Under the pieces are notes generated by a model. The model ran no database searches and was not told where the DNA came from. It saw nothing but the letters and a program-made list of their open reading frames with translations. From NCBI GenBank assembly GCA_963815955.1, contig CAWFIQ010000025.1:57020-121019 (forward strand): a stretch of DNA of 64,000 nt, read 5' to 3'. The position numbers and the translations under genes are program-made. Source of the stretch: an uncultured Alphaproteobacteria bacterium (GTDB lineage: Bacteria; Pseudomonadota; Alphaproteobacteria; Rhizobiales; Xanthobacteraceae). Positions 40,451 to 60,076 of this stretch are shown here, piece after piece (the stretch's first letter is position 1; each line of letters begins with the position of its first letter).

Positions 40451-40617
40451 ACCGACGGCCAAAGCCTCCGCAGTTTTGCTTCTAGTGGGTGAGGGATGGC
40501 TGGCCACTTTTGCATCCGCCGGTCGTTCCGATAACACAAAGGAACGTTGCTGATCTTTCTCGGGTTCTGAAAGCCCGTCGGGCGAGCGGGATGAGCTTTC
40601 TACCGACGGAATGCGTG

Positions 40618-40860
40618 ATGGAGCACAAGCTAGTCAGGCGAGACCAATTTAATATTTCCCCGCAAGGTATCGTTCATAAGCCGACCGATGCGGCATTTAC
40701 GCCTGACCCTTCGGACCCCCATTCGGGAATATTCCGGCTGGGCCAACTCGGCAGCAAGCCTCCTAACGGGGGCTACTTCAGGCCTGAAGACGTACAGACT
40801 ATATTGCGCGAGCTTTGGGCCGACTACGTCACCAGCAATCCCGAGCTCTTTAAAGCGTGA
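40618..40860 (+). CDS. Small hypothetical protein
   Basis: Coherent ORF MEHKLVRRDQF...; GGAAC-N17-GGTT at 40541-40566. Confidence 0.6.
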   Translation: MEHKLVRRDQFNISPQGIVHKPTDAAFTPDPSDPHSGIFRLGQLGSKPPNGGYFRPEDVQTILRELWADYVTSNPELFKA

Positions 40861-41245
40861 GAAAAACAAAGGGGTGATCACTCCTGAGATCTGGCTGCAA
40901 ACAGCGGGTGCCCCCGTCTGCAAGTTCCGAAAAGCGGGTAGGTGCTCGGCCTTCGGGGGTGCACAGGAACGGTCTTGGCACCGACCTGGCTTGCAGTCGG
41001 ACCATTCTAGCTAGAGGCAGGTCGAGGCGGGAGCTTCTCTTTGAACCTAATACTTCCACCGGAAGACATATATCTGACCGGGCGATTTCAGGGGCCGCGG
41101 TGACTGACCAACGCCGCCGAGCGATCATACTCCGCTCGGGCGGCGTTGTGCTTTGATCCGTCGTGCGTCGGCCACCTAGAACGTTTCAAACATTGCTAGA
41201 TGAACAATGCTCTGACCTGAACCGTCTTACTTATGGAGACAGTCC

Positions 41246-41518
41246 ATGGATCAGAGCGACGACCCGCGGGAACTAGAACGCAAGATCGAACAAGCGACCC
41301 GGATTGCTTCGCGTGTTGCTGATCAAACGACCGTAGAACGGCTGAGGGCGTGGATTGAGGATCTGAAGCAGAGGTTGTGGCAGCGTCGGGAGGCGAAACG
41401 TCTCAAGCAGCAGATCGCACAACGTGCGCAGGTAATTTGGGAAGAGAGCGGACGCCCCCTCGGCCGCGACCTGGAGTTTTGGCTTCAGGCGGAGTCCGAG
41501 ATCAACGGGCGGGATTAG
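41246..41518 (+). CDS. DUF2934 domain protein
   Basis: IAQRAQVIWEESGRPLGRDLEFWLQAESEI; GGAG RBS. Confidence 0.85.
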   Translation: MDQSDDPRELERKIEQATRIASRVADQTTVERLRAWIEDLKQRLWQRREAKRLKQQIAQRAQVIWEESGRPLGRDLEFWLQAESEINGRD

Positions 41519-41831
41519 GAGTGAATGGCTCGCCCGGACGCCTGGCGCGACCTCAACGTCGTGACATCAACGAACTGTTAAGTAGATGGTCATGGATGTT
41601 TATGACACGCTCGCATCGTCGCTGAGCCATTGAGCTGTTCGTGCAATCGATCATTGCGGCCAGCCTAGCATCGAGAAGAGCGTAACCTGCTTGATGTCCG
41701 CAATTGACCGGGGCCTATTCTGATTTTGGCACAAACTGCCCATGCCAAGCTCCCCGCACGGTTTAATGTGTTTGCCAACAGGCTGCTGAGAACGACTACC
41801 ATGCCGTGGCAGACGACCCTCATATTTGGAT

Positions 41832-42064
41832 ATGCGCGAGCTCGATTCCCGTCGTATTAACGGTAGTTTTTGTGATCCATTGAGTGCTGACCCGTCCAAA
41901 CGCGACTTAGATGCTGAAGCCGAAGAAGCGTTAGAGGCAGCACGATCAATGCCGAGCGGGAACGAGAAGACCGAAGCTTTGAAAAAGGCGGGTCTGCTGC
42001 GTAAAAGGCAGCCGACGCTCAAGGGATTTCGTCCGCTAAGCGTGGAAGGCCACCGAGGCGTTAG
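41832..42064 (+). pseudogene. Small helical protein (AEEALEAARSMP family), frameshift in the A-run at about 42004
   Basis: Corrected tail RKAADAQGISSAKRGRPPRR parallels the paralog at 56143-56328. Confidence 0.5.
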
Positions 42065-42264
42065 CGGCGGTCCACGGTTACCAAGCGAACATTGACTCCT
42101 CGATCAGAGTTGCGGAGGCACGACGGAGAAAAGTTAGGCCATACCTGTTTCGAACAGTCTTCGGTCACGTTGTCAGCCCTGACGGGCTGTTGCACTGCTT
42201 CTTCCGCACTTACGGCGGTTGTTAGTAGCAAAGAAGCCATGACAGCGGGTAAAACGTGCTTCAT
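42061..42264 (-). CDS. Small secreted protein with a Cys pair
   Basis: Signal peptide MKHVLPAVMASLLLTTAVSA; CSKQVWPNFSPSCLR. Confidence 0.7.
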   Translation of the reverse strand: MKHVLPAVMASLLLTTAVSAEEAVQQPVRADNVTEDCSKQVWPNFSPSCLRNSDRGVNVRLVTVDRR

Positions 42265-42432
42265 TTTGCGCCTCGTTTGAGCTGTCATGCCAACGAGTAC
42301 GCTCCCGCGACGCTCCAGATACTCCCGGATTAAGAGAAAAAATTCCGTAGGGACGCTCGGCGGTATCCGGGAAATAATTATCGCTGTTAGCGCGAAGCGG
42401 CCGTTCATAGTCGCCATGTCGAGAACCCGTTT

Positions 42433-44556
42433 CTACGGCATTTTTACATTTGGCTCACGTCCCCAGACGCGTAGCTTTCCAAGGCCAGCTACAAATGACT
42501 TTGCATCCTTTGCGCTGCTTAGGGGGATGCAACCCTCATCGAAATCTTCCGCTGCAACGCCCGACTTCTCGAATAGCGGCAGGGCGGATTCGACGTATCC
42601 GATGAACTTGCAATGAGCGAAGGCGTCGGCAAGGAAGTCCCGTGCCGCGGACTCCTGCAGCAGGTCGTCCATTGCGGTGATCGCCGGCAGAACAGCAACC
42701 GCGTCGTAGAGAACAGAGGGACCCCCATCAATCATTTGGTCCGCGTCGATCCAGCTACCATCGCTCGCTTTCACGCCGGCTACCGTCGGCGCGACTATCT
42801 CAAAGGTCGCTCCGGCCTTGTCGAGGGCGCCCTTGAGTGCTTCGAGTAAGCCGATATCCGATCCTTCGGTGACGAGGATACCTAACTTTCTTCCCTCGAA
42901 GCGATCTGGGCCGTTCTCAACGATGCTTAGTGCGGGGGATGGATCGAGGTCCTGGCGAGGAGGCACGGCTGCGTCTGCCGGTTTTGGCATCTTCGGTAGG
43001 CCCAGTTTGCCGGCGACCTTGCCGGCCAGTGTCTCATCGATATTCAATAGATGAGAGACCATGCGTTCCCGGATTGCCGGCGTTTTGACTTTGCTCAGTT
43101 CGAACGTCAAAGCTGCGGCTATGTGGGCCTGCTCGCCCATGGTCTGACTGATAAAGAACTGGCGCGCTTGGCTGTAGTGGTCGGCGAAGCTTTCGGCGCG
43201 CAGACGACGTTTGGGGCCCTGTTCGACGTCGGCGAAAGGTATGAATCCGCGCTGGGGCGACTTTCTCGGTCCTTCGCCGAACGAATTCGGCTGATAATTG
43301 ACGCGCCCGGCCGGATTCCGCATTGCCATATGGCCGTCCTGCTGAAAGTGAGCGAAGGGACATTTGGGGGCGTTGATAGGAATGTGGGTAAAGTTCGGGC
43401 TCCCTAACCGCTTCAGCTGAGTGTCGAGGTATGAGAAATTGCGACCTTGGAGCAGCGGATCGTTAGAGAAATCGATACCCGGCGGAACGTTCTGGGTCAT
43501 GAAGGCGACCTGTTCGGTTTCCGCGAAGAAATTATCGGGCATGCGATCGAGCACCAGTCGACCTACTGGAATCGGGGACAAAATTTCTTCCGGGATGATC
43601 TTCGTCGGATCGAGTACGTCGAAGTCGAAGGAGTCGGCGAATTCCTGGTCGAAGAGCTGCAATTGCAGTTCCCATTCCGGAAAGTTGCCGCTCTTGATTG
43701 CCGTCCAAAGATCCCGCCGATGGAAATCCGGATCGGCACCGTTGATCTTTACGGCTTCGTTCCAAACGACGGATTGCAGTCCCAGCTTGGGTTTCCAGTG
43801 AAATTTAACGAAGGTGCTCTCATTCTTGGCGTTTACGAGCCGAAAGGTATGGACGCCGAAACCTTCCATGAATCGAAACGAACGGGGGATTGCGCGGTCA
43901 GACATCACCCACATGATCATATGCATGCTTTCGGGGGTGAGACTGATGAAGTCCCAAAAATTGTCGTGGGCCGACTGGGCCTGCGGAAAGGCGCAATCCG
44001 GCTCCTCCTTCACCGCGTGGACCATGTCCGGAAACTTGATCGCGTCCTGGATGAAGAAAACAGGGATGTTATTGCCAACAAGATCCCAATTGCCTTCCTG
44101 CGTATAGAGCTTCACAGCAAAGCCTCGGACATCTCGGGCCAGATCAAAGGAACCCTTGCTGCCGGCCACGGTCGAGAAGCGGACGAACGCAGGTGTTCTT
44201 TCTCCGGCACGCTGGAAAAGATCAGCCCGGGTGTACTTTGAGAGCGACTTGTAGTTTTCGAAAAAGCCGTGCGCCGCATATCCGCGTGCATGCACAACCC
44301 TCTCGGGGATGCGCTCGTGGTCGAAATGGAAGATCTTCTCCCGGAAGTGGAAATCTTCAAGCAACGTGGGCCCCCGGGGACCAATCTTCAGAGAATTCTG
44401 ATCGTCGGAGACTGGTCCTCCTTGCGCTGTGGTTAGAACGGCCGCTTTACCCGACGCGGTTTGATGAAGCTCGCCCCCTTCACCGCGGTCTAGCTTCTGG
44501 TCGTGAATCGTTGCTGTCTCACCAGATGAGCGGCTTGACTTGGTAGATTTCGCCAT
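42433..44556 (-). CDS. katE: Large-subunit monofunctional catalase (HPII)
   Basis: [34 protein letters not shown]-terminal DJ-1-like domain; start MAKSTKS at 44556. Confidence 0.96.
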
Positions 44557-44590
44557 TTTGCGACCCTCATGGATGGAGCTGACGAATCTT

Positions 44591-44615
44591 AATCCGCTTA
44601 AGGCCGCTACGTTCC
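44591..44615 (-). promoter_or_regulatory. sigma-EcfG-type promoter of katE
   Basis: GGAAC-N16-GATT, 34 nt upstream of the ATG. Confidence 0.65.
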
Positions 44616-45445: not shown

Positions 45446-45932
45446 CTTATCCTCGACAGTGTGAACGGGATCGATGCTTCGTCTCCTTTCACGGACGTGA
45501 CCTTCGCACCACCACCAGCGCGATAAAAGACCGGTCCGCAGAATGTTCACAATGAGATTCCGACCTTGAAACACCGTTATTTTACGGAATCCTCATTCTG
45601 GTAGGATTGCTATAAGCTTGCTCTGCCAGCGTGGTGTTTTCATCCCGAACAAATTTGGGCTGGCGAAGGGCCGCAGAAATGCGGCCCTTTTGCTATCCGA
45701 TGTGCCGACGCTTTGGAGAAAAGTTTCAACATTGCGAAATCACTCTAGTCGGCTCTATTCGCAGCGGTATTGTTTTGTCATGCACGAGAATGCAATCAAT
45801 GCCGTGGCAAGTGTTAGGGCGATTTTCAGTGATTCAATGTGGGAGTGCCTTTAGTGCGTCCCGCGCGATGGTCGCAATGCATGGCATCAGTTCCAGCGAA
45901 GGGAGAATACGCAAGGGGAAATTAGGCGGTAA

Positions 45933-46097
45933 CTACCGCATCGCCGGCAGATGCATCAGGTTCTGCAGGTGCATCACATCATGTTTTTCTGCTTGACGCT
46001 CGATGAACGACTGACCTGCTACCAGCATGACCCCTGAAAAAGCGAGAGCGAGCATCGCGCTTGCAATTTGAGGAATGAGCACGGTCGTCTCCTGCAT
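45933..46097 (-). CDS. Small membrane protein
   Basis: One TM helix; GGAAC-N16-AGTT at 46110-46134. Confidence 0.55.
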   Translation of the reverse strand: MQETTVLIPQIASAMLALAFSGVMLVAGQSFIERQAEKHDVMHLQNLMHLPAMR

Positions 46098-46405
46098 CGT
46101 CCCGTCCATAACTTCGGCCCAAAAGGTTCGTTCCAACTTTTCGGGAAAAAATGGCAAAGAAGCCGCGGCCGCTCAAAAATGCACAGAAGAAAAATGCACA
46201 GAAGAAGTAGGCCGCGCGTTGCCGGCTCTGCGGTTTAAGGAACCGCGCTGTCATCTAGGCGGCGCGGCCATTTTTTGGAGCGAGGCCCGGCGTTTCAATT
46301 GCGGATCGCTTCGAGGCAACCGACCGGATGAATGGCTTCTGCGTGTTCGAGTTCTCCCGGCGATTATCCCCTAGGAACGTATTGGTTGAACGACCGTTTC
46401 TCCGC

Positions 46406-46615
46406 ATGGCCGATATCGAGCTGATAGAGCAGTCCTTCCAGATTGCTTGGGGTGTCCTTGAGAGAACTGGTGAACTCGGGGAGCCGAATTGTTCTGCGAA
46501 TTTTCTTCTTGATGAGATCATCGGTATGTTGCGGTGTGGCGAACGGCGCAGGCTCGTTCTTTCAAATCGCGCAATCGATGCGTACCGAAACCAACCGGTC
46601 AAACTCGCCTCATGA
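46406..46615 (+). CDS. Small hypothetical protein, probably leaderless
   Basis: MADIELIEQSFQIAW...; GGAAC-N16-CGTT ends 7 nt before the ATG; no RBS. Confidence 0.65.
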   Translation: MADIELIEQSFQIAWGVLERTGELGEPNCSANFLLDEIIGMLRCGERRRLVLSNRAIDAYRNQPVKLAS

Positions 46616-46714
46616 TCGACCCTGACAGACTTGGCAGGTCCCGTTACCGTTCAAGATCCCTATGAACCCCTGGAAGGCAAAGTCGATGAGCAATTGGTCG
46701 CGTAGACCCCTGCT

Positions 46715-46960
46715 TCAACGACGCCGAGCCACAGCGACGCCTAGCAAGAAGGCGACTAACAGGGACCCGAGTGGCGCCTCCCGCGCAATGTTGCTCAGGA
46801 TACTTAGCGGCATACCAGGTTTCCGACCGTTTTCGATCGCATCGCCAACGCGACTAGCGGCACTCCTGACAGCATCAGAAACCTCTTCAATCGTAGACTT
46901 TGATGCTGGAACGGGATCCAGGCCTTCGTACACAAACGGCGGGGGTATGTCGTCGGCCAT
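46715..46960 (-). CDS. Small tail-anchored protein (ElaB/DUF883-like C-terminus)
   Basis: REAPLGSLLVAFLLGVAVARRR; GGAAC-N16-GATT at 46986-47010. Confidence 0.7.
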   Translation of the reverse strand: MADDIPPPFVYEGLDPVPASKSTIEEVSDAVRSAASRVGDAIENGRKPGMPLSILSNIAREAPLGSLLVAFLLGVAVARRR

Positions 46961-47045
46961 GGGCGAAACTCCGGATCGATAGGGTAATCGATTAGATCGC
47001 AGCTCGTTCCTGCGGCGCTCTATCCCAGGGTACGCGAAACGGGGA

Positions 47046-47273: not shown

Positions 47274-47553
47274 TTCTTCTTCTTATTTTCTTTTTTCTTG
47301 ATGATATCGGCCTGGATTCTGAAGGCTTTCGCCAGCGTTCTCATCTGGTTGGCGAACCATACGTGTCGGCCGTATTCACCGCAACCCGCTCTGCGGTAGC
47401 TGCCTGCTGTCGGATAGCTTTGGCCATCTTCATAGGATGGGTAACTTCCTTATCTTTACGCGGTTCCGCTCTAGTACGAGCCGTCTATCGCGGCTTTTGC
47501 GTCAGCATAACCGACTCTGGTCCAGTCTGGCCGACGTGCCCCAGTTAGCCATC

Positions 47554-47613: not shown

Positions 47614-47787
47614 TCCCCCATTCTCGCATCCATGCAGATCTTCGGGCGCATGGGAAAATTCAGTGCCGCTTGGATGACGGGTTTGGAAGGGGTCGCCACG
47701 TTGGCTCATCTATTAGGTTGGCCTATTCCATCGCTAGGTGAACATTTAACGGTCCGGCACGTTGTTCCCGTCCACAGAGGATACGTA

Positions 47788-48021
47788 ATGACCGAGATCA
47801 AAGAGCACATGGAAGTCATCGGAGCCGACGGCGTTCATGTCGGCACCGTCGACGAAGTCGAAGGCAGCCGCATCAAGCTGACGAAGAAGGACAGCGGCGA
47901 GGGCTCTCATAAGGGGCATCATCACTTCATCAATAAAAGTCTGTTTGCCGGCGTTGAAGGCAACAAGGTCAGGCTTTCGGCGAACGCCGATGTCGCGGTG
48001 ACGATGGAAGAAGAAAAGTAA
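47788..48021 (+). CDS. DUF2171 domain protein
   Basis: IKEHMEVIGADGVHVGTVDEVEG...IKLTKKDS; TGAAC-N16-CGTT at 47739-47763. Confidence 0.88.
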   Translation: MTEIKEHMEVIGADGVHVGTVDEVEGSRIKLTKKDSGEGSHKGHHHFINKSLFAGVEGNKVRLSANADVAVTMEEEK

Positions 48022-48201: not shown

Positions 48202-48515
48202 ACTACTGAGCCAACAAACTGAACACAAAAGTGTTCCTCCTTCGGCTGTTAGACCGATGATGGCGCGACACTCTTGATGCGCTACGCGGGCCTGGTGCAG
48301 TAAATCCAGACCTTTCTTATACGACTGCCGCGCCACGCTGACGATGTCCGATGTTGGGGCGACGCGGACCCGCCGCTTGGCCGCATCGGGGTCCGGAAGT
48401 GACCCGGAGCGGACCTCGTGTCGCGACGACAAAGCACGGTTGCATGATTGTTCAGATTGGTCGTCAGAGTATTATGGCTGGGTGCGGCGCTTTTTGCCTT
48501 CATGGGAGGCGAGTG

Positions 48516-49012
48516 ATGAAGGTTACGGGCTTCAACCACCTGTCGATAGGCACCAAGAATTCGCGGAGTTGGTGAAATTCTACGAGACCGTATTGGGCAT
48601 GCAGACCATTCCCAGCTACAATTTTGGCTTCAAAACAAAATATCTCCGCTGCGGCGATCTGCAATTGCACATCTTCGAGCTGGAAGATCAGGTTCCGTTC
48701 TACCAGCACTTCGCGGTAGATGTGGACGATTTCCATGCTGCCTACGATGCTGCAAAGGCGATTGGCGCGCTCAACTCGACGGCGTTTCGCAATCCGGTGA
48801 ACGAACTTCCGGATGGCTGCGTCCAGATGTATTTGCGGGACCCAGCAGGAAATCTGATCGAGATCGACTGGCCTGATGTTGAGACGCTCGATCGCTCGCG
48901 AATTCCTGAGATGAAGCTGTTGACCGAGTTCGCCGCACAAAACGAGGAAGGGCTCGCTGCTTCCCTGTACCTCGATCGGCCGCATCTGAAGACCGCGCGA
49001 CAAGCGAGATAG
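48516..49012 (+). pseudogene. VOC/glyoxalase family protein, one-base deletion near 48558
   Basis: GGAGG RBS, MKVTGFNHLSI then VKFYETVLG, QHFAV, MYLRDPAGNLIEID. Confidence 0.82.
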
Positions 49013-49149
49013 CGAAGAACGGTGAAATGGCGGGTGTTGGTCGGAAGCCGAACGCAAGCATGCCCTGGGGTCGGATCGATGCTTCGGCCTGTCCGAACGA
49101 TCTGGTCTGGAACAAGGACGTCCATGTTCTGACGGCATCCTCGTTCACT

Positions 49150-49254
49150 TTCCGCTTTTGGCACTATTGAGACATGCTCACTGGCCCTGACGACGTCCGT
49201 TTTCTGGAGAAGATCGGAAGTAGTCGGCCGACGCCAAAGTGACGCGATTGACCC
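49150..49254. repeat. Dispersed bradyrhizobial MITE-like repeat
   Basis: TTCCGCTTTTGGCAC...GTCCGTTTT...CGGAAGT...TGACGCGATTGACCC architecture, recalled from this genus. Confidence 0.5.
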
Positions 49255-49341
49255 ATTGCGGCCTGAGGGCCGCTGGGCCAGTGTTTGTCCGGGTGCACCT
49301 TCAGCTTTGGCTGCCGAAAAGACCTCTTTCACTGTTGCTCC

Positions 49342-49694
49342 ATGGCGATTTGGCAATTCGACTTCTATCTTATCCCTCGCAAAGCCATTGAGCGGGTTCA
49401 TGGACCGTCTCCCGTGGTGCTCGGAGCGTTTCGAAGGAGTCGTGTGCAAGAAGCAGATAGCTATCCAGACCCACCCAACTATTGGGCTGGCCGCCAGTGT
49501 TCCTCTTACGAAAACGCCGTGGGAGCGTCGTTGGCGGCTCGAAAGTCATGGGCTCCTGAGGCGCCGATGTTCGGGGACGAGAAAGCCGTGCGATCGGCCT
49601 ATCTCGACGGTGAGACGGACGGTCCTCGTTCCTACGCAGCCACTGCTTGGGTTGTGAGGGGTACGGGCCATAGGTGGACGGTCTGTGGCGCCAG
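49342..49694 (+). pseudogene. Truncated hypothetical protein (MAIWQFDFYLIP...)
   Basis: Protein-like N-terminus that runs into the palindromic repeat at 49695. Confidence 0.4.
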
Positions 49695-49886: not shown

Positions 49887-50786
49887 TTACGGCAGCACTT
49901 TCTGATGCCGACTGAACTCATTTGACCGCGCCATCCAGTGCGGCAATGGCGCACCATCACGGTGCCTCCCACCAGCGCACGCGGCAGCCCATGCCGCCAC
50001 AGCGCCGAGCAACACGGCTGTGGCGATCGAGAACGCCACTATAATGCTGCTTCGCCGTGTCCTCGCAATTGCCGTTTTGGCGTTTGTAAGCGCGTTGTCG
50101 ACCCGACGCTCCGAGTCCGCTGGTGACATACCTGTCAGCGCACCCACCTGCTGAACCAGATAGGCGCGATCGTCAGCGGTTACGCCGCTGTGACTTGAAG
50201 TAGTGAGTAGAATGCGGCCGGCTTCAGCTCGTTCCGCACTGAGATCTACGTTGGGCGAGCGGCGACCGGCACGAAACAGTCGATCGAGCTCGTAGCTCAG
50301 CAGCGGCTCCGCCGTGCTTGCTTGTGCGCTGCCCCGCAGGGAGGACGTCCGGCTTACTGTGGCCGCACCGATCAAAGCAGCGATAATCGCGCCCATTACC
50401 ACTGCCAAGGCCCAGGCACCTAGACCGTGAACACCATCGGCTCGTTCGGTCTCCTCGACAACCGTTGCTCTACCGCCGGCCGCAGCTCTGACACGGCCAG
50501 CCAAATATCCGCCGACCCCGAAGCTGACGATTGCCTGCAAGATCAAGTAGACACCGGAGAGGATTGCGAGCGCCGCGGACGCATCGCGCCAAGTAGGCGC
50601 AGTTGACGAGATGCCAAGCCCTACGGTGACCCCGAAACCAACTAACACCGAAGACAGAGCGGTCGCCGCTAATGCGCCAAGCACAACGGGCGACCACTCC
50701 ACGAAGCGCCACCCATTATCTGCTCGTGCCACTGGCGTTATATCATTTCGGGCTGCTGGCGGGATATTTTCCATCGACATTTCCAT
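49887..50786 (-). CDS. Multi-pass membrane hypothetical protein
   Basis: WSPVVLGALAA..., four to five TM helices, DGVHGLGAWALA. Confidence 0.78.
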   Translation of the reverse strand: MEMSMENIPPAARNDITPVARADNGWRFVEWSPVVLGALAATALSSVLVGFGVTVGLGISSTAPTWRDASAALAILSGVYLILQAIVSFGVGGYLAGRVRAAAGGRATVVEETERADGVHGLGAWALAVVMGAIIAALIGAATVSRTSSLRGSAQASTAEPLLSYELDRLFRAGRRSPNVDLSAERAEAGRILLTTSSHSGVTADDRAYLVQQVGALTGMSPADSERRVDNALTNAKTAIARTRRSSIIVAFSIATAVLLGAVAAWAAACAGGRHRDGAPLPHWMARSNEFSRHQKVLP

Positions 50787-50790
50787 GGCC

Positions 50791-50865: not shown

Positions 50866-51044
50866 GAGCTTGCTCCCTTGTATACCTGACCCCACTTCTC
50901 ACCGACAATTTACTTGTACCGGCAAAGTTCCCCAGTTCGAGAAAGAACGTGCGATGCTTGGGGGTTAGACCGGTGACAACTCGGTCGCCACATCGATGCA
51001 GCAGCGGCTGAGCTTGAGCCCCGGACGCTGTCATATTCACCGGC

Positions 51045-51254
51045 ATGAAAATGCTTCCCGAGTATCTTGAGCGTGCCCTTAGCCTCGAACGTCTTGCGGC
51101 AGACGAGCAGGATGCGACGTTCAAAAGCGCGTTGCTGCAAGCGGAGGCGTACCGAAAGCTGGCAACGAAGCGCACTTCTCCTCAAGTTGCCCACGTGCTC
51201 GCAACGCGGGGAGGTTCTGTCGTCGAGTGCTTCTGGGCGAAATGGATAGCGTGA
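51045..51254 (+). CDS. Small helical hypothetical protein
   Basis: YLERALSLERLAADE...AYRKLA; tail may be frameshifted. Confidence 0.55.
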   Translation: MKMLPEYLERALSLERLAADEQDATFKSALLQAEAYRKLATKRTSPQVAHVLATRGGSVVECFWAKWIA

Positions 51255-51272
51255 AGGCGTTAGATGATCAGC

Positions 51273-51401
51273 CTAGCCAAAAATGGTCCTGAGCAGGTAT
51301 GTGACGTTCCAAGCGATGAAGCTGGCAATGACGGCCAGTATCAACGTTGGATCTCGGCCATCGAATAGATCGTGCTTCATCTGACGCCAAAACGCTCTCA
51401 T
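51273..51401 (-). CDS. 42-aa membrane peptide
   Basis: GGAG RBS, TM LILAVIASFIAWNVTYLL; GGAAC-N16-CGTT at 51426-51450. Confidence 0.6.
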   Translation of the reverse strand: MRAFWRQMKHDLFDGRDPTLILAVIASFIAWNVTYLLRTIFG

Positions 51402-51425
51402 TTCCGCGTCTCCCGTACCAGCTAG

Positions 51426-51476
51426 AACGGGAAAAAACGGCAAACGTTCCGGAACGAAGGTTATTCGAAAAACATT
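51426..51476. promoter_or_regulatory. Back-to-back divergent sigma-EcfG-type promoters
   Basis: GTTCCGGAAC palindrome provides both -35 boxes; minus strand N16-CGTT, plus strand N17-CATT. Confidence 0.7.
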
Positions 51477-51494
51477 CTGCTCAGAGAGGGATCC

Positions 51495-51956
51495 ATGCAC
51501 CTGTTCCGCTTCTTTGCCTTCCTGTTGTTTGCGACGTTGGCCTCTCCGGCGACGGGTGCGGAATGGCAAAGTTTTGTGATTCCAAGTACTGGGACCAGAG
51601 TCGAAATGCCGGTATCGACATTTACGGAAGAAACCGAACTGCCTGATGGGGGAGTTGGTCGACGCTTCTTCACGTCGGATCGCCGCGCCGATTTGACAAT
51701 ACAGTCTATCGAAAATCCCGGCGAAGTCTCACCTTCCGTGTTCCTCGCGAAAAGAAATCCGCCTCCGGGGATCAGCTATCGGAGGGTAACATCGACCTTC
51801 TTTGTCGTTTCCAGCGTTCGTAAGGACCGCATTTGGTACAACCGCTGTAATCGGTCGCCCGGGCGCATGCACTGCGTCTTGATCAACTATCCCGCTGCAC
51901 AGAAACGCCAGTGGGACAGTATTGTTACCAGGATAAGTCACACGCTGGGACCATAA
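51495..51956 (+). CDS. Secreted hypothetical protein
   Basis: Signal peptide; YRRVTSTFFVVS...IWYNRCN...CVLINYP. Confidence 0.75.
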   Translation: MHLFRFFAFLLFATLASPATGAEWQSFVIPSTGTRVEMPVSTFTEETELPDGGVGRRFFTSDRRADLTIQSIENPGEVSPSVFLAKRNPPPGISYRRVTSTFFVVSSVRKDRIWYNRCNRSPGRMHCVLINYPAAQKRQWDSIVTRISHTLGP

Positions 51957-52149
51957 GCGCGGAGTTTGTACGCGTCGCTAACAGCGTTGGCGACCATGTG
52001 AACGCCGTCCAGCAGCTAGAAGGCGCAGCGTTTAACTCTGACCGTACACGCCAACTGAACAACCGTTCAGAAAAGTCTCCATCCCCCGCAGGAACGTAAG
52101 GTTCGTTGTAGACGTTGTTCACCACAATGTCCTTCCAATGGAGAGACTC

Positions 52150-52419
52150 ATGAAGAAGTTAGTTCTAGCTGGTGCTGCGTTGGCGACGATAGCTTTGGGC
52201 CTTCCAAGTATTGCCACTGCTGAGGAGTTCAGCGTTCGTGTTGGCGGCGACCGGGGTATGCATCGAGATGGCGATTACCGGACGAGCCGTGAGTTCCGTG
52301 GGGCGCGAGCTGAGTATGGCTACGACCGACATGACCGCGGCCTTCACCGTGGTTGGTACAAGGATCGCGGAGAGCGCACGGTGATCATCAAGAAGCGTCA
52401 CCGTCATTGGGACGATTGA
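52150..52419 (+). CDS. Small secreted Arg/His/Gly-rich protein
   Basis: Signal peptide, GGAGAG RBS; GGAAC-N17-CGTT at 52091-52116. Confidence 0.75.
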   Translation: MKKLVLAGAALATIALGLPSIATAEEFSVRVGGDRGMHRDGDYRTSREFRGARAEYGYDRHDRGLHRGWYKDRGERTVIIKKRHRHWDD

Positions 52420-52420
52420 G

Positions 52421-52453
52421 AAAAATGGCCCCTTTACCGGGGCCATTTTTTTT
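52421..52453. terminator. Bidirectional rho-independent terminator
   Basis: AAAAATGGCCCC-tttacc-GGGGCCATTTTTTTT. Confidence 0.88.
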
Positions 52454-52699
52454 GAGGACTGCTCACCTCCGCGACGATGACCTTAGAGATCGTTCGTTCT
52501 GGTTACGTCCACGCGGGATTCGACCGTGAATTGTCGGCGCCTACTCTCATTGCGAAGTGACGTACTGAACGGCTTCCGAACGCAATCGATGGTTCCGGGG
52601 CCAGGCGCAATTCGGCGATCAGCATCCGCTTAAGGTCGCAGTCAAGGAACTAAAGGTTCGACGAGAGATTACGCTCGCTCCTGAACTCTGGAGAAAACG

Positions 52700-53017
52700 A
52701 TGAAACGCTCACTTCTCTTCATTTGTATTGGATTAATAGCGGCGACTACGGCTTCGGCACAAAATCCGCCCGCGCAGTCGGGACCGAACAACAGCGCAGT
52801 CAATAGCCCCGGTCAAAACAACTCAAGCGCTCCTGTCGCCGGCCGCAACAGTTTTACTGAAGGTCAAGCGAAGTCGAAAATCGAGGAAGCCGGCTACACC
52901 AACGTTACGGAACTGAAAAAGGACGACGCGGGTGTTTGGCGTGGGAAGGCCAGCAAAAGCGGTTCTGTCGCTTTGGTAAGCGTCGATTTTCAAGGCAACG
53001 TTAACTCTGCGAAGTAA
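52700..53017 (+). CDS. PepSY-like secreted protein
   Basis: NSFTEGQAKSKIEEAGYTNVTELKKDDAGVWRGKA...VSVDFQGNV; GGAAC-N16-GATT at 52646-52670. Confidence 0.85.
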   Translation: MKRSLLFICIGLIAATTASAQNPPAQSGPNNSAVNSPGQNNSSAPVAGRNSFTEGQAKSKIEEAGYTNVTELKKDDAGVWRGKASKSGSVALVSVDFQGNVNSAK

Positions 53018-53029
53018 GGAAAGCCCGAC

Positions 53030-53650
53030 ATGACCGTTACGATTTCTCGTCTCTACGATACGTACGCCGAAGCCGAGGCTGCCTTTCGGCGGCTGGAGAC
53101 CGCCGGAGTACCGCACGCGGACATCAGCATCCTGGCTAACAATTCCGACAGCTGGTTCAACACCGATAAGAAAGTGGATCGGGACCGTGACGGCCTCGAT
53201 GATCGCGCGGAAGGCGCAGGCAAGGGCGCTGGCATCGGCGCAGGCGTTGGTGGTACCGCCGGTCTTCTAGCCGGCCTTGGCTTGCTTGCGATCCCCGGGT
53301 TGGGGCCTGTTGTCGCAGCTGGCTGGTTGGCGGCGACCGCCGTCGGCGCAGCGGCAGGAGCGGCAACGGGCGGCATCGTGGGAGCTCTCACGCAAGCTGG
53401 GATCTCCGAAGAAGATGCCCATTCGTACGCAGAAGGCGTACGGCGCGGCGGCACGCTGGTAACCGCCAAGGTCGCTGACGGTGACCGCGCGCGCTTCGAT
53501 GCCGCCTTGAATGACTCTGCCGTTAACCTGCGGGACCGCCGCGCCGCTTGGCAGAAGGGGGGGTGGGCATCCTTTGATCCCGCAAGCCAACCTTATGGAG
53601 AGGAAGAGGTGCGTAAGGAGCGACAGCTTTACGATGCCGTACCTCGGTAA
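53030..53650 (+). CDS. General stress protein (YflT/Gsp17M-like with glycine zipper)
   Basis: ISRLYDTY...DISIL, GLGLLAIPGLGPVVAAG, YAEGVRRGGTLV. Confidence 0.88.
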   Translation: MTVTISRLYDTYAEAEAAFRRLETAGVPHADISILANNSDSWFNTDKKVDRDRDGLDDRAEGAGKGAGIGAGVGGTAGLLAGLGLLAIPGLGPVVAAGWLAATAVGAAAGAATGGIVGALTQAGISEEDAHSYAEGVRRGGTLVTAKVADGDRARFDAALNDSAVNLRDRRAAWQKGGWASFDPASQPYGEEEVRKERQLYDAVPR

Positions 53651-53657
53651 AAATCAG

Positions 53658-53686
53658 AAACGGCCCGCTACGGCGGGCCGTTTTAC
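53658..53686. terminator. Rho-independent terminator
   Basis: AAACGGCCCGC-tacg-GCGGGCCGTTT then TACTT. Confidence 0.8.
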
Positions 53687-53811
53687 TTTGTACAAGACTA
53701 AGCGGACCAAAAAAGAACCCCTGACAGGTTCGCGCGGCGGACGGACCCACCTCCCGTCTCACGTCACGACACCCATAACCTCTATTATATCGTTGATGTT
53801 TCGAGCGTTTT

Positions 53812-54939: not shown

Positions 54940-55086
54940 GAGCATCTCCCCGAAGGTAATCGCGTTGAACGACCACGGGTTCCTTTTATAGGCGCGCGAA
55001 TGGTGCGGTATTTGCAAGGAATCGCGGACTAACGGAGACGAATTGACTAGCCTGCACCGCATGCGAGTGGCGTAGGAATTCGGGGT

Positions 55087-55299
55087 ATGAAAGGTTATCG
55101 AGCCTACATCCTTGGAGAGGACGGTCGCGTTCAAAATCGTGTCGATCCAGTTTGCGACGATGAAGCCGAGGCCATCAGGCTCGCCAAGCAGCTTGTCGAT
55201 GGACACGACGTTGAGCTACGGCAACTGGGTCGACTGGTCGAGACGTTCACTGTTCTCCCGTCCGCTGATCTCGGTTTCGGCTTGAAGCCAAAACTCTAA
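55087..55299 (+). CDS. Small hypothetical protein (YRAYILG family)
   Basis: YRAYILGEDG...DDEAEAIRLAKQLVDGHDVEL. Confidence 0.7.
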   Translation: MKGYRAYILGEDGRVQNRVDPVCDDEAEAIRLAKQLVDGHDVELRQLGRLVETFTVLPSADLGFGLKPKL

Positions 55300-55524
55300 G
55301 TCGCGGTCGGCGGGTCGGCCGTTTTGCTCCCACAGTTCCCGAGCGCGCACCGTGATCTCTTGCTTGGTGCGCCTCGCTCTCCGCCCGTCCCGCAGCTTCT
55401 GCCGCAATTCCTCAATGAAGGCTCTAAGTCGCTCATAAGTCGTCTGGTCCGTAACGCTGGAAGCGATCCGGCTCACCTGTTCGATCTTGCGCTCCAGTTC
55501 CTGGGAGTCTTCCTTGCTCTCCAT
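55216..55524 (-). CDS. DUF2934 domain protein, paralog of 41246-41518
   Basis: ELERKIEQ...DQTT.ERLRA.IE.L; RARELWEQNGRPADRDLEFWLQAE. Confidence 0.85.
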   Translation of the reverse strand: MESKEDSQELERKIEQVSRIASSVTDQTTYERLRAFIEELRQKLRDGRRARRTKQEITVRARELWEQNGRPADRDLEFWLQAETEISGRENSERLDQSTQLP

Positions 55525-55806
55525 GTCTTCCCTCGGCGAACAGAGTCCGCATCCTTGGATTCTATTCCCATCAATTGGGAATGTTCCTCGCGGTTGTGGG
55601 TTCCTGTGTGCCTTTGTGCACTGACGGCTGGCGAGAATGCTGGTTTGATATTTTCATTACCGATCCTTGGAATATATTTGCGATCAGTTCGGCACACGCG
55701 CCGGGCTTTTCGTCTTCCTGCTATTCCACTTTCGGTTGGCAACCGGACAAACGGAAGCGTCAACGGGTGTTACAAAGCCCCAAATTGAACGGCTGCCGAT
55801 TATCGG

Positions 55807-56043
55807 ATGACAAAGTTATATTTTGATTATCAAGATGCCAACGGCATCCTGAAAGACGATGTTGGCGAGGAACTGCCCGACACCGCGGTGGCGCGGAAGG
55901 AAGCACTCGTGACCGCCGGTCAGACACTTCAAGATTTGGCGAATCGCGACTTGGAGGGGCGCGTCGTGATTGAGGTTCGCGACCTCGACGGACCTGTCCT
56001 CAGAGTTTCTGCAACCGTCGAGACAGCTCCGCTCAAGGGTTGA
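55807..56043 (+). CDS. DUF6894-type small protein
   Basis: LYFDYQD...DDVGEELPD...ARKEAL...IEVRD. Confidence 0.75.
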   Translation: MTKLYFDYQDANGILKDDVGEELPDTAVARKEALVTAGQTLQDLANRDLEGRVVIEVRDLDGPVLRVSATVETAPLKG

Positions 56044-56142
56044 AGCGGCGGTTCGTCAAGTGCGAATTACCCTGCTACTTCTGATTGGTCGGCGATGCCT
56101 TCGGGGCGCGAACGTTCAATGATCCCGCACACGATAAAAAGA

Positions 56143-56328
56143 TTATTTGGGGCGGCGACCGCGAGGCGAAAACCTGGGCGCCTGTAATTGGTCGGCGGCA
56201 CTCCTCAGCTTCCCAGCTTCCTTAAATGCCTCAGAACGAGCGGCGCCTGGAGGGAGGCTGCGCGCGCACTTTAGCGCTGCGTGGGCCGCGGCGTCCGCCT
56301 GCTCGAAGTCGTGCTTTTCATCAATCAC
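56143..56328 (-). CDS. Small helical protein, paralog of 41832
   Basis: ARSLPPGAARSEAFKEAGKLRSAAD. Confidence 0.6.
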   Translation of the reverse strand: MIDEKHDFEQADAAAHAALKCARSLPPGAARSEAFKEAGKLRSAADQLQAPRFSPRGRRPK

Positions 56329-56338
56329 TTCTACGCCT

Positions 56339-56557
56339 TCAGCTCTTATAAGCCGCCGATTCGAACAATCTGTCGGTCGATTTATCCAGCCGTCTTTCTC
56401 CGGCTGGGGAGCTAAGGTGACCTACGAATTCGCCCGTCGGTTTATAAATCTTTTGGCCCCGGAGGTCGTAAAGTTTCTTGTCAGATAGATTACAAATTTG
56501 GTTGGCTTGAATGTAAGCGACGTACTGTCCTTCGCTGGTGAGTATTCTACCATCCAT
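56339..56557 (-). CDS. Small beta-rich hypothetical protein
   Basis: MDGRILTSEGQYVAYI...LYDLRGQKIYKPTGEFVGHL. Confidence 0.55.
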   Translation of the reverse strand: MDGRILTSEGQYVAYIQANQICNLSDKKLYDLRGQKIYKPTGEFVGHLSSPAGERRLDKSTDRLFESAAYKS

Positions 56558-56879
56558 CGCGCTCGAGTTCCTCGGGAGGCCCATTCACTGGAGGGCCATC
56601 AGCACCGTGAGGGGAGCGGAGTTGGACTGGGCACGGCGGAGAGCATTGGTCTGCACCTCTCAATACAAAGCGTTCGCGCAACCGGCATGAGCGATGCCGG
56701 GTAATCCGCGGTCTCTTGAACCCGCAATCTACCGCTCCTCCGGCATATTTCGCGTTGAGTTGGAACTTTGCAGATTGCGCAAGCTGATCAGCCGCATGCT
56801 GGGCCGCGGAAGGTTGTTCCGGACCCAGGAACAGGGCTGCCTTTCAACGGTTGGTGTCGTTCAACAGAGGAGTGACCCT

Positions 56880-57395
56880 GTGGCGAAAAAACCTAAGAAG
56901 CTTGAAGACCTTTTTCATGAAACACTGAAGGACATCTACTTCGCTGAGAACAAGATTCTTAAAACCCTTCCGAAAATGGCAAAGGCGGCGCAGTCGAAGG
57001 AGTTGAGGGCCGCTTTCGTCCAGCATGAGCGAGAGACCAAGGGACAGGTTAAGCGTCTCGATCGGGTCTTCAAAATTATCGGCAAGCCTGCCAAGGGGAA
57101 GACCTGCGCTGCCATCAACGGGATCACGGAAGAGGGATCCGAGATCATGAAGGACTTTAAGGGAATGCCAGCCCTCGATGCCGGGCTTCTCGCTGCCGCA
57201 CAGGCCGTCGAACACTATGAGATTTCGCGGTATGGGACGCTCGCCACGTGGGCCGACGAGCTCGGGTACGGAGAGGCGGTCGACCTCCTCAAAGCCACAC
57301 TGCAGGAAGAGAAGAACACGGATAAAACCTTAACTGGCATTGCCAAATCGGTGGTCAATATCGAAGCCGAAGAGGCCGAGAGAGTAGACGCCTAA
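56880..57395 (+). CDS. yciF: Ferritin-like DUF892 protein
   Basis: LKDIYFAE, HERET, AAAQAVEHYEISRYGTL, EEKNTD; GGAAC-N16-GGTT at 56828-56852. Confidence 0.93.
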   Translation: MAKKPKKLEDLFHETLKDIYFAENKILKTLPKMAKAAQSKELRAAFVQHERETKGQVKRLDRVFKIIGKPAKGKTCAAINGITEEGSEIMKDFKGMPALDAGLLAAAQAVEHYEISRYGTLATWADELGYGEAVDLLKATLQEEKNTDKTLTGIAKSVVNIEAEEAERVDA

Positions 57396-57411
57396 TCTAT
57401 CACGTATACTT

Positions 57412-57445
57412 GCAGAAGATCCCGCCTCAGGGAGGGATCTTCTGC
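57412..57445. terminator. Hairpin between the convergent yciF and NUDIX genes
   Basis: GCAGAAGATCCC-N10-GGGATCTTCTGC. Confidence 0.75.
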
Positions 57446-57447
57446 TG

Positions 57448-57930: not shown

Positions 57931-58147
57931 CTTCGCACGCTGTGCCGCATTGCGCGCGGTTTGCCGCCTAATTGTTCTTGATGACTTATAACGATAACTC
58001 GCGAGACATGCCTCATCCTCATTTCGACTTTGGTATTTAGCTGACTTAGCTAACCTACCTTATGGGTGTCTGGCCGACTGCGACCCGCATGGCGGGAAAA
58101 AGCAGCAATGCACTAGCAACTAAACAATCTAGCCTGCGTTTCGGTAG

Positions 58148-58309
58148 ATGCTAGATAGCGACCCAATCAAGTTTCGGGAACAAGCGAGGGAATGTCTCGA
58201 TCAAGCCAACAAGGCCAGAGACCCGCTCGATCAGGAGGCATGGCTCGGCTTGGCCGACGACTTCATAAAGCTCGCAGTAGCTTTGGAGCAAGCACAGCGC
58301 TCGCAATAG
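58148..58309 (+). CDS. 53-aa helical protein (not in the ORF track)
   Basis: FREQARECLDQANKARDPLDQEAWLGLADDFIKLA. Confidence 0.65.
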   Translation: MLDSDPIKFREQARECLDQANKARDPLDQEAWLGLADDFIKLAVALEQAQRSQ

Positions 58310-58812
58310 CGTGGGACAGGTTGATCATCAGCAAACGACCTTAGAGAAAAGAGCGGATGTTGCTTCACCCTTAACGAATTTCCGGTGGCGACCCGAAGTA
58401 GACGTTGTTGCTGCAACGCCTGAACGAACGTCAAACTAGCCTTCGGGCTGAGCTGATGTCGTGAGAATAATGCGAGCATTCCACGATGGCCGATAGCTAC
58501 CTTCAGCGCTATTGGATCGCGTTCCCCATTTGCGGCCGGCGCAAGTATGTGAGACGCAATCTCGCAATTTGCTTTTGATTTCTATCTCACTTCGGGGAGC
58601 GTTTTGCTTGCTGCGCAGCGGGAGGGCAGTCTCGATTTGGCTCTGTTTAATTCGCTTCGGAGCCTGTGGTAGGACCCGATCCCAAGCGTGTCATTCCAGA
58701 GTTTCGGTTGCCGCTCCCGCTCTTGGGCTCGATTGACCGCTTCCTCCCTGCAGAGGAACGCTTGGACATTTGGCCCGTTGAAACGCCACACAGGAAAATT
58801 AGGGAGACATTT

Positions 58813-59097
58813 ATGCAAATCAATCTCAGAACAGTCTGCGTTGCCGCAGCGGTGATTGTTGCCAGCACGACGATGGCTTCTGCACAGGGCAGTACCGATC
58901 GCAACGGCAACGCGATGGGTTCTCAGAATGTTGGTCAGGGAACGACAGGCGGCGCCATAAAGGACAACAAGGCAACGACGGGTATGAGCCCCACCAGTCC
59001 ATCGCAGAATAGTCCCAACGGCTCGCCGAATGCACCTCCCACAACGAAGCAAGGTCCACAGGGCGACCCCTCGAAAGCCAATGACACGCCGAAGTAG
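58813..59097 (+). CDS. Small secreted low-complexity protein
   Basis: GGGAG RBS, signal peptide, S/T/G/P/N-rich; GGAAC-N16-CGTT at 58755-58779. Confidence 0.75.
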   Translation: MQINLRTVCVAAAVIVASTTMASAQGSTDRNGNAMGSQNVGQGTTGGAIKDNKATTGMSPTSPSQNSPNGSPNAPPTTKQGPQGDPSKANDTPK

Positions 59098-59175
59098 GAG
59101 TTGGACCGCGAAGATGAGCCGCCCCGGAGCCACCCTCCGTGGCGGATCTCCTTATTGGTACCTTTGGAGCGTGCG

Positions 59176-59352
59176 ATGCAAAAAGTCATTGATCGGGTGA
59201 CGAAAACCTTCGGAATGACAAGGCCGATTTCCGAAAAAGAGACAGAGCAGACGCGCGAGGTATTGCTCGATTTTCTATCGAAGCGGCCTGGCACGGACGA
59301 CCACGTGGCAACCGTGGAAGGACTGAACTTCTTGAGAAACCTTAAAACGTGA
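59176..59352 (+). CDS. Small hypothetical protein
   Basis: GGAG RBS; MQKVIDRVTKTFG...ATVEGLNFLR. Confidence 0.6.
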   Translation: MQKVIDRVTKTFGMTRPISEKETEQTREVLLDFLSKRPGTDDHVATVEGLNFLRNLKT

Positions 59353-59359
59353 GGACCCC

Positions 59360-59503
59360 ATGGAAATCGTTTACTTCATCGGAGCGATGATACTCCTTAC
59401 AGCGCTGATTTACGGGACCCTGAACTATCGCTATCGGGACAAGTCAAAGAACAAAATCGCCGATCAGGTTGTCCGAGACCGATACCATCGCAACGAGACC
59501 TGA
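59360..59503 (+). CDS. 47-aa membrane peptide (not in the ORF track)
   Basis: GAGG RBS; MEIVYFIGAMILLTALIYGTLNY...VVRDRYHRNET. Confidence 0.7.
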   Translation: MEIVYFIGAMILLTALIYGTLNYRYRDKSKNKIADQVVRDRYHRNET

Positions 59504-59568
59504 GCATTCGACGAAAGTAAAGGCCGCCTCGCATGGCGGCCTCTTACTTTACGTTCTTGATAGGAAGG

Positions 59569-59892
59569 TTAGCAGTCTTTATCAATTATCTTCGCTGAGG
59601 GTTGGCCGCCTTGGGCCTGCTGCGCGGCCGTGGGTTGTCCCTGCATTTGTGCCTGCGAATCTTGCGATGACGTTGCGACGCCGCCTGTTGCGCGGTTCAT
59701 TGTATCTGTTGGCGGATGCTGATTGGAGGATTGCGTACTACCAGTTGTTTGACTGGTAGCTCCGACTGTGGGACCTGAACCGGCGTCGCGGTTCGCGGAC
59801 GTACCACCGGTGCTGCACGGGCCCGCCTGGGCGGTGGCGGCGCTTAAAAGCAATGCAGTGCCCGCTGCGAGAAGCATTCGTTTCGTTTGCAT
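59569..59892 (-). CDS. Small secreted protein with terminal Cys pair (AGPC...DC)
   Basis: Signal peptide, Q/T/G-rich; GGAAC-N16-TGTT at 59959-59983. Confidence 0.75.
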   Translation of the reverse strand: MQTKRMLLAAGTALLLSAATAQAGPCSTGGTSANRDAGSGPTVGATSQTTGSTQSSNQHPPTDTMNRATGGVATSSQDSQAQMQGQPTAAQQAQGGQPSAKIIDKDC

Positions 59893-60076
59893 AGAGTTCT
59901 CTCCCTGGTTTCATCCTTTGGAATGCGTTCATTCGCATTCCGAAGGACTTGCCAGAACAACAAGATCAACTATCGCCAGTTCCTCGATGTCGGGGTGATT
60001 TGGCTTTCTAGTTCAATTCCCGCTTGCAATTGTTAGCCAATTGCCTTGGGATGTAGATCCTCGGCTAGTGGAGTGA

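Follow-up and report, generated by a model that had tools for sequence, protein, structure and literature searches.

The general stress response of Alphaproteobacteria turns on a partner switch in which HWE/HisKA_2 kinases phosphorylate PhyR, PhyR~P binds NepR, and EcfG, a sigma factor, is freed for promoters resembling GGAAC-N16/17-CGTT. The response is usually portrayed as a core regulon, described from a few model strains. In Sphingomonas melonis Fr1 and Bradyrhizobium diazoefficiens, the promoters combine a GGAAC -35 element, a spacer of 16-17 nucleotides (nt) and a CGTT-like -10 element, are for the most part no more than 70 nt from the start codon, and serve genes for catalase, DUF892, YflT/Gsp and small secreted or membrane proteins in hosts with a canonical regulator locus. 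About 40% of the EcfG-dependent genes of S. melonis are of unknown function, with small secreted proteins among them (PMC6599016), and more than 100 genes are controlled by EcfG in B. diazoefficiens (PMC8092242). Here we describe a comparable set of genes in a 64,000-nt stretch (hereafter, the window; C25:57020-121019) of a 6.85-Mb draft genome with a guanine-plus-cytosine (GC) content of 63%. The host is a Bradyrhizobium; relatives of the YflT protein encoded in the window are mostly named to this genus, the best at 84-85% amino acid (aa) identity. Unlike in the published EcfG regulons, whose promoters are described as scattered or grouped around phyR, about 16 promoters of the EcfG type fall here within 19 kb of what appears to be an inserted low-GC element at a transfer RNA (tRNA) gene for glutamine, away from the regulators.

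The element resembles tRNA islands and integrative mobilizable elements in its repeat of a tRNA 3' end, its adjoining recombinase-like gene, its relaxase gene and its atypical composition, and also in the variable cargo behind a conserved recombinase and in signs of tandem accretion. No type IV secretion system (T4SS) or mating-pair genes were noticed among the open reading frames (ORFs) annotated in the 41 kb covered, although no dedicated search was made and a contig gap interrupts the element. In contrast to usual tRNA islands, the element brings no self-regulated module for catabolism, symbiosis or resistance: behind a recombinase-like gene of a divergent DUF6538 type, its cargo is a series of single-gene units, all with promoters of the kind read by a single host sigma factor. 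Compared by description, ICE3 of Sphingopyxis granuli TFA is likewise an alphaproteobacterial mobile element at a tRNA site, with stress-related cargo that is induced under several stresses (bioRxiv 10.64898/2025.12.11.693706). Unlike the island described here, ICE3 is a complete integrative and conjugative element with a T4SS, and the preprint ties none of its cargo to EcfG promoters, naming EcfG in its reference list only (bioRxiv 10.64898/2025.12.11.693706). The literature that we searched contained no description of a mobile island in which the cargo units each have an EcfG promoter of their own.

We favour the reading, with a probability of roughly three in four, that this cargo is part of a low-GC tRNA-Gln island of at least 41 kb and that some 13-16 of its units stand behind EcfG-type promoters read by the chromosomal EcfG. 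The cargo comprises catalase HPII, DUF2171, PepSY-like and YflT proteins, a BrkB/YihY protein, DUF892/YciF, and about ten small secreted or single-transmembrane proteins. Under this reading, stress-activated kinases would phosphorylate the chromosomal PhyR, PhyR~P would sequester NepR and so free the chromosomal EcfG, and EcfG would steer RNA polymerase to the GGAAC-N16/17-(C/G/A)NTT promoters found between 40.5 and 60 kb. The whole block of about 13-16 mostly monocistronic units would then switch on together with the host general stress response. Its products would be KatE for peroxide removal, stress proteins of the DUF892/YciF and YflT types, a membrane protein of the BrkB/YihY family and several small proteins of the envelope.

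We take the promoter motif first. All 16 sites listed in the original prediction between 40541 and 59983 are present at the coordinates and in the orientations given there (for minus-strand sites the coordinate marks the -10 end), as is the outlying site at 33213. The -35 box is GGAAC in 15 of the 16 and TGAAC at 47739, and the -10 element is CGTT in five (47739 included), GATT in four, GGTT and TGTT in two each, and AGTT, AATT and CATT in one each; 11 of the 16, again counting 47739, thus carry CGTT, GGTT or GATT, and five carry TGTT, AGTT, AATT or CATT. The identification of this motif with the EcfG consensus agrees with the published EcfG/ECF15 consensus, and the range of -10 variants and start distances is the same at EcfG-dependent genes of S. 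melonis (PMC6599016).

We counted matches on both strands of 40541-59983 (19,443 bp) against 300 dinucleotide-preserving shuffles, with the pattern read backwards as a control, in three classes: strict (GGAAC-N16/17-CGTT), medium (-10 element CGTT, GGTT or GATT) and loose (NNTT). The strict pattern occurred four times (shuffle mean 0.37, maximum 3; reversed control 1), the medium pattern 10 times (mean 1.03, maximum 5; control 1) and the loose pattern 18 times (mean 4.36, maximum 11; control 8), and no shuffle came up to an observed count. The original estimate of about six chance matches was therefore about right, if slightly conservative. A separate shuffle test of the whole window gave four strict matches against 1.14 expected, all four inside 40541-59983. 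Of the 18 loose matches, 16 are intergenic and face a gene whose start codon follows 0-127 nt downstream. The remaining pair, 47443-47467 and 50211-50235 on the minus strand, have no plausible gene downstream, the latter lying within the ORF of a 297-aa protein, and look like chance matches. Matches resembling sigma-70 promoters are not enriched in the same stretch (5 against 7.9 expected). A scan of 33-64 kb with Rfam matched no RNA family, so no known small RNA accounts for the motif sites that lack good ORFs.

The same positional signal extends to the whole genome, which contains 316 medium matches (0.92 per 20 kb). Of these matches, 99 are intergenic and lie no more than 150 nt upstream of a start codon on the same strand, compared with 20 of 255 for the reversed control. 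This excess indicates that the genome holds a real regulon with roughly 80 or more such promoters, in line with the number of EcfG-controlled genes in B. diazoefficiens. When the genome is scanned in 20-kb sliding windows, the present stretch ranks second with its 10 medium matches. The first rank (14 matches) belongs to a different low-GC region, which starts beside a tRNA-Ser(TGA) gene and runs to the end of contig C26. This sister region (C26:660015-732328; GC 0.54-0.60), whose far boundary lies past the contig end, has 26 medium matches in 76 kb and encodes Ku, LigD-like, Mn-catalase-like, CsbD, PRC barrel and DUF892 proteins, together with a paralogous PepSY-YflT operon that is 77% identical and has its own GGAAC-N16-GGTT promoter. 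The two low-GC regions together cover 1.7% of the genome and contain 39 of its 316 medium matches (about 12%).

To follow the promoters across related genomes, we used 11 loci from genomes of the same genus and 80 loci from named genomes. The motif GGAAC-N16/17-NNTT lies about 30 nt before the ATG of the PepSY-YflT operon in 33 of the 39 homologues with an alignable N-terminus, and their spacers are divergent. It is also found upstream of DUF892 in 13 of 17 homologues, of the 81-aa protein in three of eight, and of the single homologue available for each of four proteins: YihY (84% aa identity, in locus L020, with both boxes retained and the spacer diverged), the 69-aa protein (83% aa identity, in B. 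jicamae, where GGAAC-N17-CGTT is kept 11 nt upstream), the 153-aa protein (GGAAC-N16-CGTT, in L023) and the 107-aa protein (GGAAC-N16-GGTT, 63 nt upstream, in L042). Among three Mesorhizobium katE homologues whose N-terminus was covered, two (L091 and L093) are preceded by GGAAC-N16-CATT. GGAAC is absent upstream of the sole DUF2171 homologue checked. From the genome-wide rate, the chance of a loose match in a 105-nt upstream region is below 1%, and neighbours without a motif, taken as negative controls, gave none (SRAP, 0 of 4 homologues; Csp, 0 of 2).

In pairwise alignments of katE, yihY and DUF892, similarity starts at the -35 box, the spacer has diverged, and the -10 element and leader are conserved; for katE, this holds against a locus with 86% nt identity (L021), where the similarity likewise begins at the -35 box; DUF892 was aligned with L020. 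Conservation of the boxes and leader from the -35 element inward indicates that promoter and gene move together as one cassette. The cassettes of katE, PepSY-YflT, YihY, DUF892 and the 81-aa protein recur with changed order and orientation in the C26 sister region, at two loci from metagenome-assembled genomes of uncultured alphaproteobacteria (L020 and L021) and in a genome of the same genus (L006).

Transcript contigs come from four rhizosphere metatranscriptomes. Those identical to the window fall on eight motif-linked units, with cover at 45807-46040 (54-58-aa unit), 46537-46943 (81-aa unit), 50036-50775 (297-aa unit), 51219-51405 (42-aa unit), 51496-51717 (153-aa unit), 52698-53543 (PepSY-YflT) and 59502-59879 (107-aa unit), and RNA depth is zero at 48284-49597 and 55511-56824, two stretches free of the motif. 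None of the 32 pieces listed begins upstream of the -10 element of its own unit, and the sole one of them to cross a predicted promoter (that at 52091) is a read-through at 51947-52147. The contigs are compatible with the predicted starts, although not decisive.

The second line of evidence concerns the element itself. GC content drops at about 34 kb, from 0.62-0.65 to 0.53-0.58, and does not recover before contig C25 ends. A 20-nt repeat lies within this low-GC DNA (Table 1), and its sole other copy in the genome belongs to the intact tRNA-Gln(CTG) gene at C26:2223-2296 (minus strand), outside the window. Directly downstream of that gene, and reaching almost to the contig start, is a 604-aa ORF (C26:312-2129, minus strand) whose product resembles a recombinase: several homologues, at 38-88% identity, contain PF00589 or have tyrosine recombinase or integrase as their name. 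The order tRNA-Gln, recombinase, contig gap, end of C25 and back to the repeat at 36645 fits one element, and because the orientations of the repeat and tRNA-Gln fit it as well, the island would span at least 41 kb. Its first gene inside the repeat encodes a relaxase, and to judge from these features the island is probably mobilizable. Further out, where the GC content drops, a decayed tRNA-Gln relic at 34107 bounds the far side of an islet with a single gene, for a pentapeptide-repeat protein (34674-36359); the islet and this second relic suggest tandem accretion.

The repeat, the recombinase-like gene, the relaxase and the GC drop lend physical support to the horizontal acquisition that the original prediction proposed for 40541-59983, and not to the bounds that it set: the element starts at 36626 and ends past the window. 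Horizontal acquisition is the supported reading; that the DNA was in fact acquired, that it is mobile at present, and that C25 and C26 adjoin are points that we infer from this arrangement. The tRNA-Ser gene of C26 was rejected as the integration site, as it does not match the tRNA-like relics of the window, which match tRNA-Gln(CTG). An origin as a segment of a known plasmid was rejected as well, since megablast of 40-60 kb against plasmids gave only katE homologues at 74-78% identity. A metagenome contig with a 97%-identical recombinase (L097; ERZ25039583:contig_58208) was considered as a bridge between C25 and C26 and set aside because its cargo differs. At the nucleotide level its recombinase gene and that adjoining tRNA-Gln are 95% identical, and its cargo (NUDIX, cupin, PAP2, pyrophosphatase, a TPP enzyme and MOSC) resembles the C26 sister region in parts; a near-identical recombinase with unrelated cargo is as expected for a family of islands.

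Past the window end, the same low-GC element contains a complete chemotaxis cluster (C25:122757-132690) without EcfG-type motifs, made up of CheX/CheC-like, two CheY, CheA, CheR, a HEAT-repeat protein, CheB, CheW and a methyl-accepting chemotaxis protein. On the other side of the repeat, copies of the left-flank Bug/TctC gene (32007-33146) that are 83-91% identical occur in many soil metagenome contigs, and their flanks map to other contigs of the genome, so the left neighbourhood is itself variable. An exact look-up of the Bug/TctC protein found nothing.

Several findings weigh against an acquired island under EcfG control. The strict pattern is no more frequent in the genome than its reversed control (147 against 149), so that a single match is uninformative on its own. 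Three of the 16 listed sites are weak (40541, 48213 and 50907), that at 47739 has an imperfect -35 box, and the -10 variants TGTT, AGTT, AATT and CATT are only loosely specific. The transcript data are low-depth, unstranded assembled contigs. The 604-aa protein matches Pfam DUF6538 only, not PF00589, and had neither a PHROG match nor a sequence match in the PDB. The island ends on two contigs for which no bridging read or contig was obtained, and the end of C25 shares no overlap of at least 15 nt with either end of C26 or with any other contig end. The same gene modules are present in many Bradyrhizobium genomes, so some of the cluster may be of old date and not a recent acquisition.

The spread of these modules lends some weight to an explanation that we consider unlikely, though the least so of the alternatives: an old, variable chromosomal neighbourhood may have accumulated stress genes, the 20-mer and the relaxase being remnants of unrelated events. 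The katE, PepSY-YflT, YihY and DUF892 modules are indeed found, in shuffled order, in many Bradyrhizobium and other alphaproteobacterial genomes. Around YflT genes in 80 genomes, the medium pattern averages 2.8 matches per 20 kb against 0.9 in the control, a threefold enrichment, with a few neighbourhoods reaching 7-9; clustering is therefore recurrent, and the window stands at its upper end. Moreover, the 80 metagenome loci with relatives of the left-flank Bug/TctC protein (58-91% aa identity) lie in other contexts with no adjoining tRNA-Gln, none offers an empty tRNA-Gln site, and no excised form of the element was seen. Remnants of unrelated events, however, sit poorly with the sharpness of the GC step, with an exact repeat correctly oriented to an intact tRNA-Gln and a recombinase-like gene, with a relaxase directly inside that repeat, and with a near-identical recombinase gene joined elsewhere to other cargo. 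In addition, reference genomes of the same genus reach at most 78% nt identity to the 2.5-kb piece tested (51200-53700).

A Pfam search of the genome for NepR returned one clear match (58.8 bits), on contig C1, where a divergent phyR (270 aa), nepR (76 aa), ecfG (182 aa) and an adjacent HWE-type histidine kinase gene form the canonical single-copy locus that the original prediction had presumed in its host; GGAAC-N16-CATT lies upstream of nepR. Searches of the genome with tblastn found no second EcfG or PhyR, and neither is encoded on the island. With no sigma factor gene of its own and a single chromosomal EcfG, the island would depend on the chromosomal sigma factor, and we infer that EcfG reads these promoters.

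A less probable alternative is that the promoters are real and read by another host extracytoplasmic function (ECF) sigma factor. At least five further ECF sigma genes, 30-36% identical to EcfG, were found by tblastn, none of them in either low-GC region; a -35 element containing AAC is common to many ECF groups, and half of the -10 elements differ from the canonical CGTT. Against such a factor, GGAAC with CGTT, GGTT or GATT at 16-17 nt is the signature of ECF15, and the same -10 variants occur at genes whose dependence on EcfG is experimental (PMC6599016). The host nepR-ecfG operon also carries the motif, and the cargo (catalase, DUF892 and YflT here; PRC barrel, CsbD and Ku/LigD in the sister region) is typical of an EcfG regulon. 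That the motifs are functionless chance matches in AT-richer intergenic DNA is very improbable and already contradicted: although the loose pattern has just seven fixed bases and the genome-wide strict count matches its control, counts here are 4- to 10-fold above the shuffles, placement before starts is correct in 16 of 18, and the boxes are kept in 33 of 39 and 13 of 17 upstream regions whose spacers diverge.

The island may also feed into the response upstream of EcfG. Near its cargo, a hybrid kinase fragment is accompanied by a single-domain receiver of the FAT-GUY type, whose only paralogue, at 52% identity, is encoded on contig C13, and a loose motif, GGAAC-N17-ACTT, occurs at 63417-63442, near these genes. 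The receiver may provide a possible input to the general stress response.

Most island genes are missed by a gene finder trained on the whole genome because their codon usage differs; we therefore used one retrained on low-GC DNA, which is still crude for ORFs under 40 aa. Pfam upheld the annotations first made from the translations (catalase HPII, DUF2171, YflT/Gsp, BrkB/YihY and DUF892/YciF, with a sub-threshold match to PepSY_2 for the PepSY-like protein), and the remaining motif-linked products belong to no Pfam family. The view that most members are secreted or membrane mini-proteins was also borne out: an N-terminal signal peptide is predicted for the 153-, 93-, 94- and 107-aa proteins and the PepSY-like protein, and one hydrophobic helix is present in the 58-, 81-, 34- and 42-aa products and the 297-aa protein. 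The 89-aa ORF at 40591-40860 has no Pfam match, no homologue among the fetched loci and a poor coding score. Genes without the motif within the stretch encode a glyoxalase-fold protein, a NUDIX hydrolase, DUF6894 and one copy of DUF2934; a cold-shock protein and an SRAP peptidase are encoded just past 59983.

Some units have features of their own. The promoters at 46374 and 46110 end just 0-7 nt ahead of the annotated ATG, which implies, if they are used as predicted, that the mRNAs are leaderless or nearly so, or that a downstream start is used. The divergent promoters at 51426 and 51451 stand back to back, and their abutting -35 boxes form a perfect palindrome, GTTCC|GGAAC (51446-51455). The -35 box at 48213 falls in a hairpin, GAACAC-TTTT-GTGTTC, that also scores as terminator-like, and a bidirectional terminator hairpin lies beyond the PepSY-YflT operon, at 53658-53683. 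The two DUF2934 paralogues, at 41246-41518 (plus strand) and 55216-55524 (minus strand), have near-identical N-terminal helices (ELERKIEQ..RIAS); only the second has a GGAAC motif upstream, at a site absent from the original list, and similar short genes recur in the C26 region. The site at 33213 lies outside the att relics, in 63%-GC DNA.

Table 1. Window coordinates of the predicted promoters and of other features of the element. Gene coordinates on the minus strand are given from start to end where the order is reversed; TM, transmembrane.
Feature	Coordinates	Strand	Associated gene or context	Remark
GGAAC-N16-GATT	33213-33237	+	41 nt before 146-aa secreted Pro/Arg-rich protein (33279-33719)	
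Decayed tRNA-Gln 3'-end relic (...GTTCGA...CCCCAGCCA)	34107-34135	-		partial similarity only; weakly supported
attR-like repeat GAATCCTAGTTCCCCAGCCA	36626-36645	-	20-nt exact copy of the tRNA-Gln(CTG) 3' end	
MobA/MobL-family (MOBQ-type) relaxase	36962-38440	+	first gene inside the repeat	PF03389, E = 6e-13
Candidate promoter GGAAC-N17-GGTT	40541-40566	+	24 nt before 89-aa ORF (40591-40860)	weak
Predicted promoter GGAAC-N16-GATT	44591-44615	-	34 nt before katE (catalase HPII, 44556-42433)	
Predicted promoter GGAAC-N16-AGTT	46110-46134	-	immediately before 54-58-aa single-TM protein (46109-45933)	
Predicted promoter GGAAC-N16-CGTT	46374-46398	+	7 nt before 69-aa protein (46406-46615)	
Predicted promoter GGAAC-N16-GATT	46986-47010	-	25 nt before 81-aa tail-anchored protein (46960-46715)	
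Candidate promoter TGAAC-N16-CGTT	47739-47763	+	24 nt before DUF2171 gene (47788-48021)	imperfect -35
GGAAC-N16-TGTT	48213-48237	-	before 34-aa hydrophobic ORF (48201-48097)	doubtful
Candidate promoter GGAAC-N16-AATT	50907-50931	-	126 nt before 297-aa multi-TM protein (50780-49887)	weak; the credible gene
Predicted promoter GGAAC-N16-CGTT	51426-51450	-	24 nt before 42-aa TM peptide (51401-51273)	
Predicted promoter GGAAC-N17-CATT	51451-51476	+	18 nt before 153-aa secreted protein (51495-51956)	
Predicted promoter GGAAC-N17-CGTT	52091-52116	+	21 nt before 93-aa secreted, highly charged protein (52138-52419)	
Predicted promoter GGAAC-N16-GATT	52646-52670	+	29 nt before operon PepSY-like (52700-53017) and YflT/Gsp (53030-53650)	
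Predicted promoter GGAAC-N17-GATT	54958-54983	-	12 nt before BrkB/YihY-family membrane protein gene (54945-53812)	
Candidate promoter GGAAC-N16-CATT	55580-55604	-	55 nt before DUF2934 gene (55524-55216)	additional site
Predicted promoter GGAAC-N16-GGTT	56828-56852	+	27 nt before DUF892/YciF gene (56880-57395)	
Predicted promoter GGAAC-N16-CGTT	58755-58779	+	33 nt before 94-aa secreted low-complexity protein (58813-59097)	
Predicted promoter GGAAC-N16-TGTT	59959-59983	-	66 nt before 107-aa secreted protein (59892-59569)	
Single-domain receiver, PFIFASGY (FAT-GUY type)	62971-63336	-	downstream of hybrid kinase C-terminal fragment (63424-63948)	

Both the promoter type and tRNA islands are already well known; the value of this locus lies in their combination, a segment of the EcfG regulon that appears to be carried on a tRNA-Gln island, and in a list of candidates, rather than in a new mechanism. 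That list ranks about ten small proteins, secreted or in the membrane, that are conserved and uncharacterised, as likely stress effectors. More broadly, and tentatively, EcfG cassettes could be traded between Bradyrhizobium on tRNA-integrating mobilizable islands and work on arrival, as every alphaproteobacterial host has EcfG. If so, a sizeable, strain-specific part of the stress regulon would be acquired accessory DNA rather than core genome, and the island-borne FAT-GUY receiver and hybrid kinase could alter the input to PhyR. The case suggests that a strain could acquire a large share of a regulon at once, in the form of a mobile block; because the genes bring with them the promoter of a universally present sigma factor, no regulatory rewiring would be needed. 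If true, this would help to explain why soil and inoculant Bradyrhizobium strains differ in their tolerance of desiccation and of oxidative and osmotic stress.

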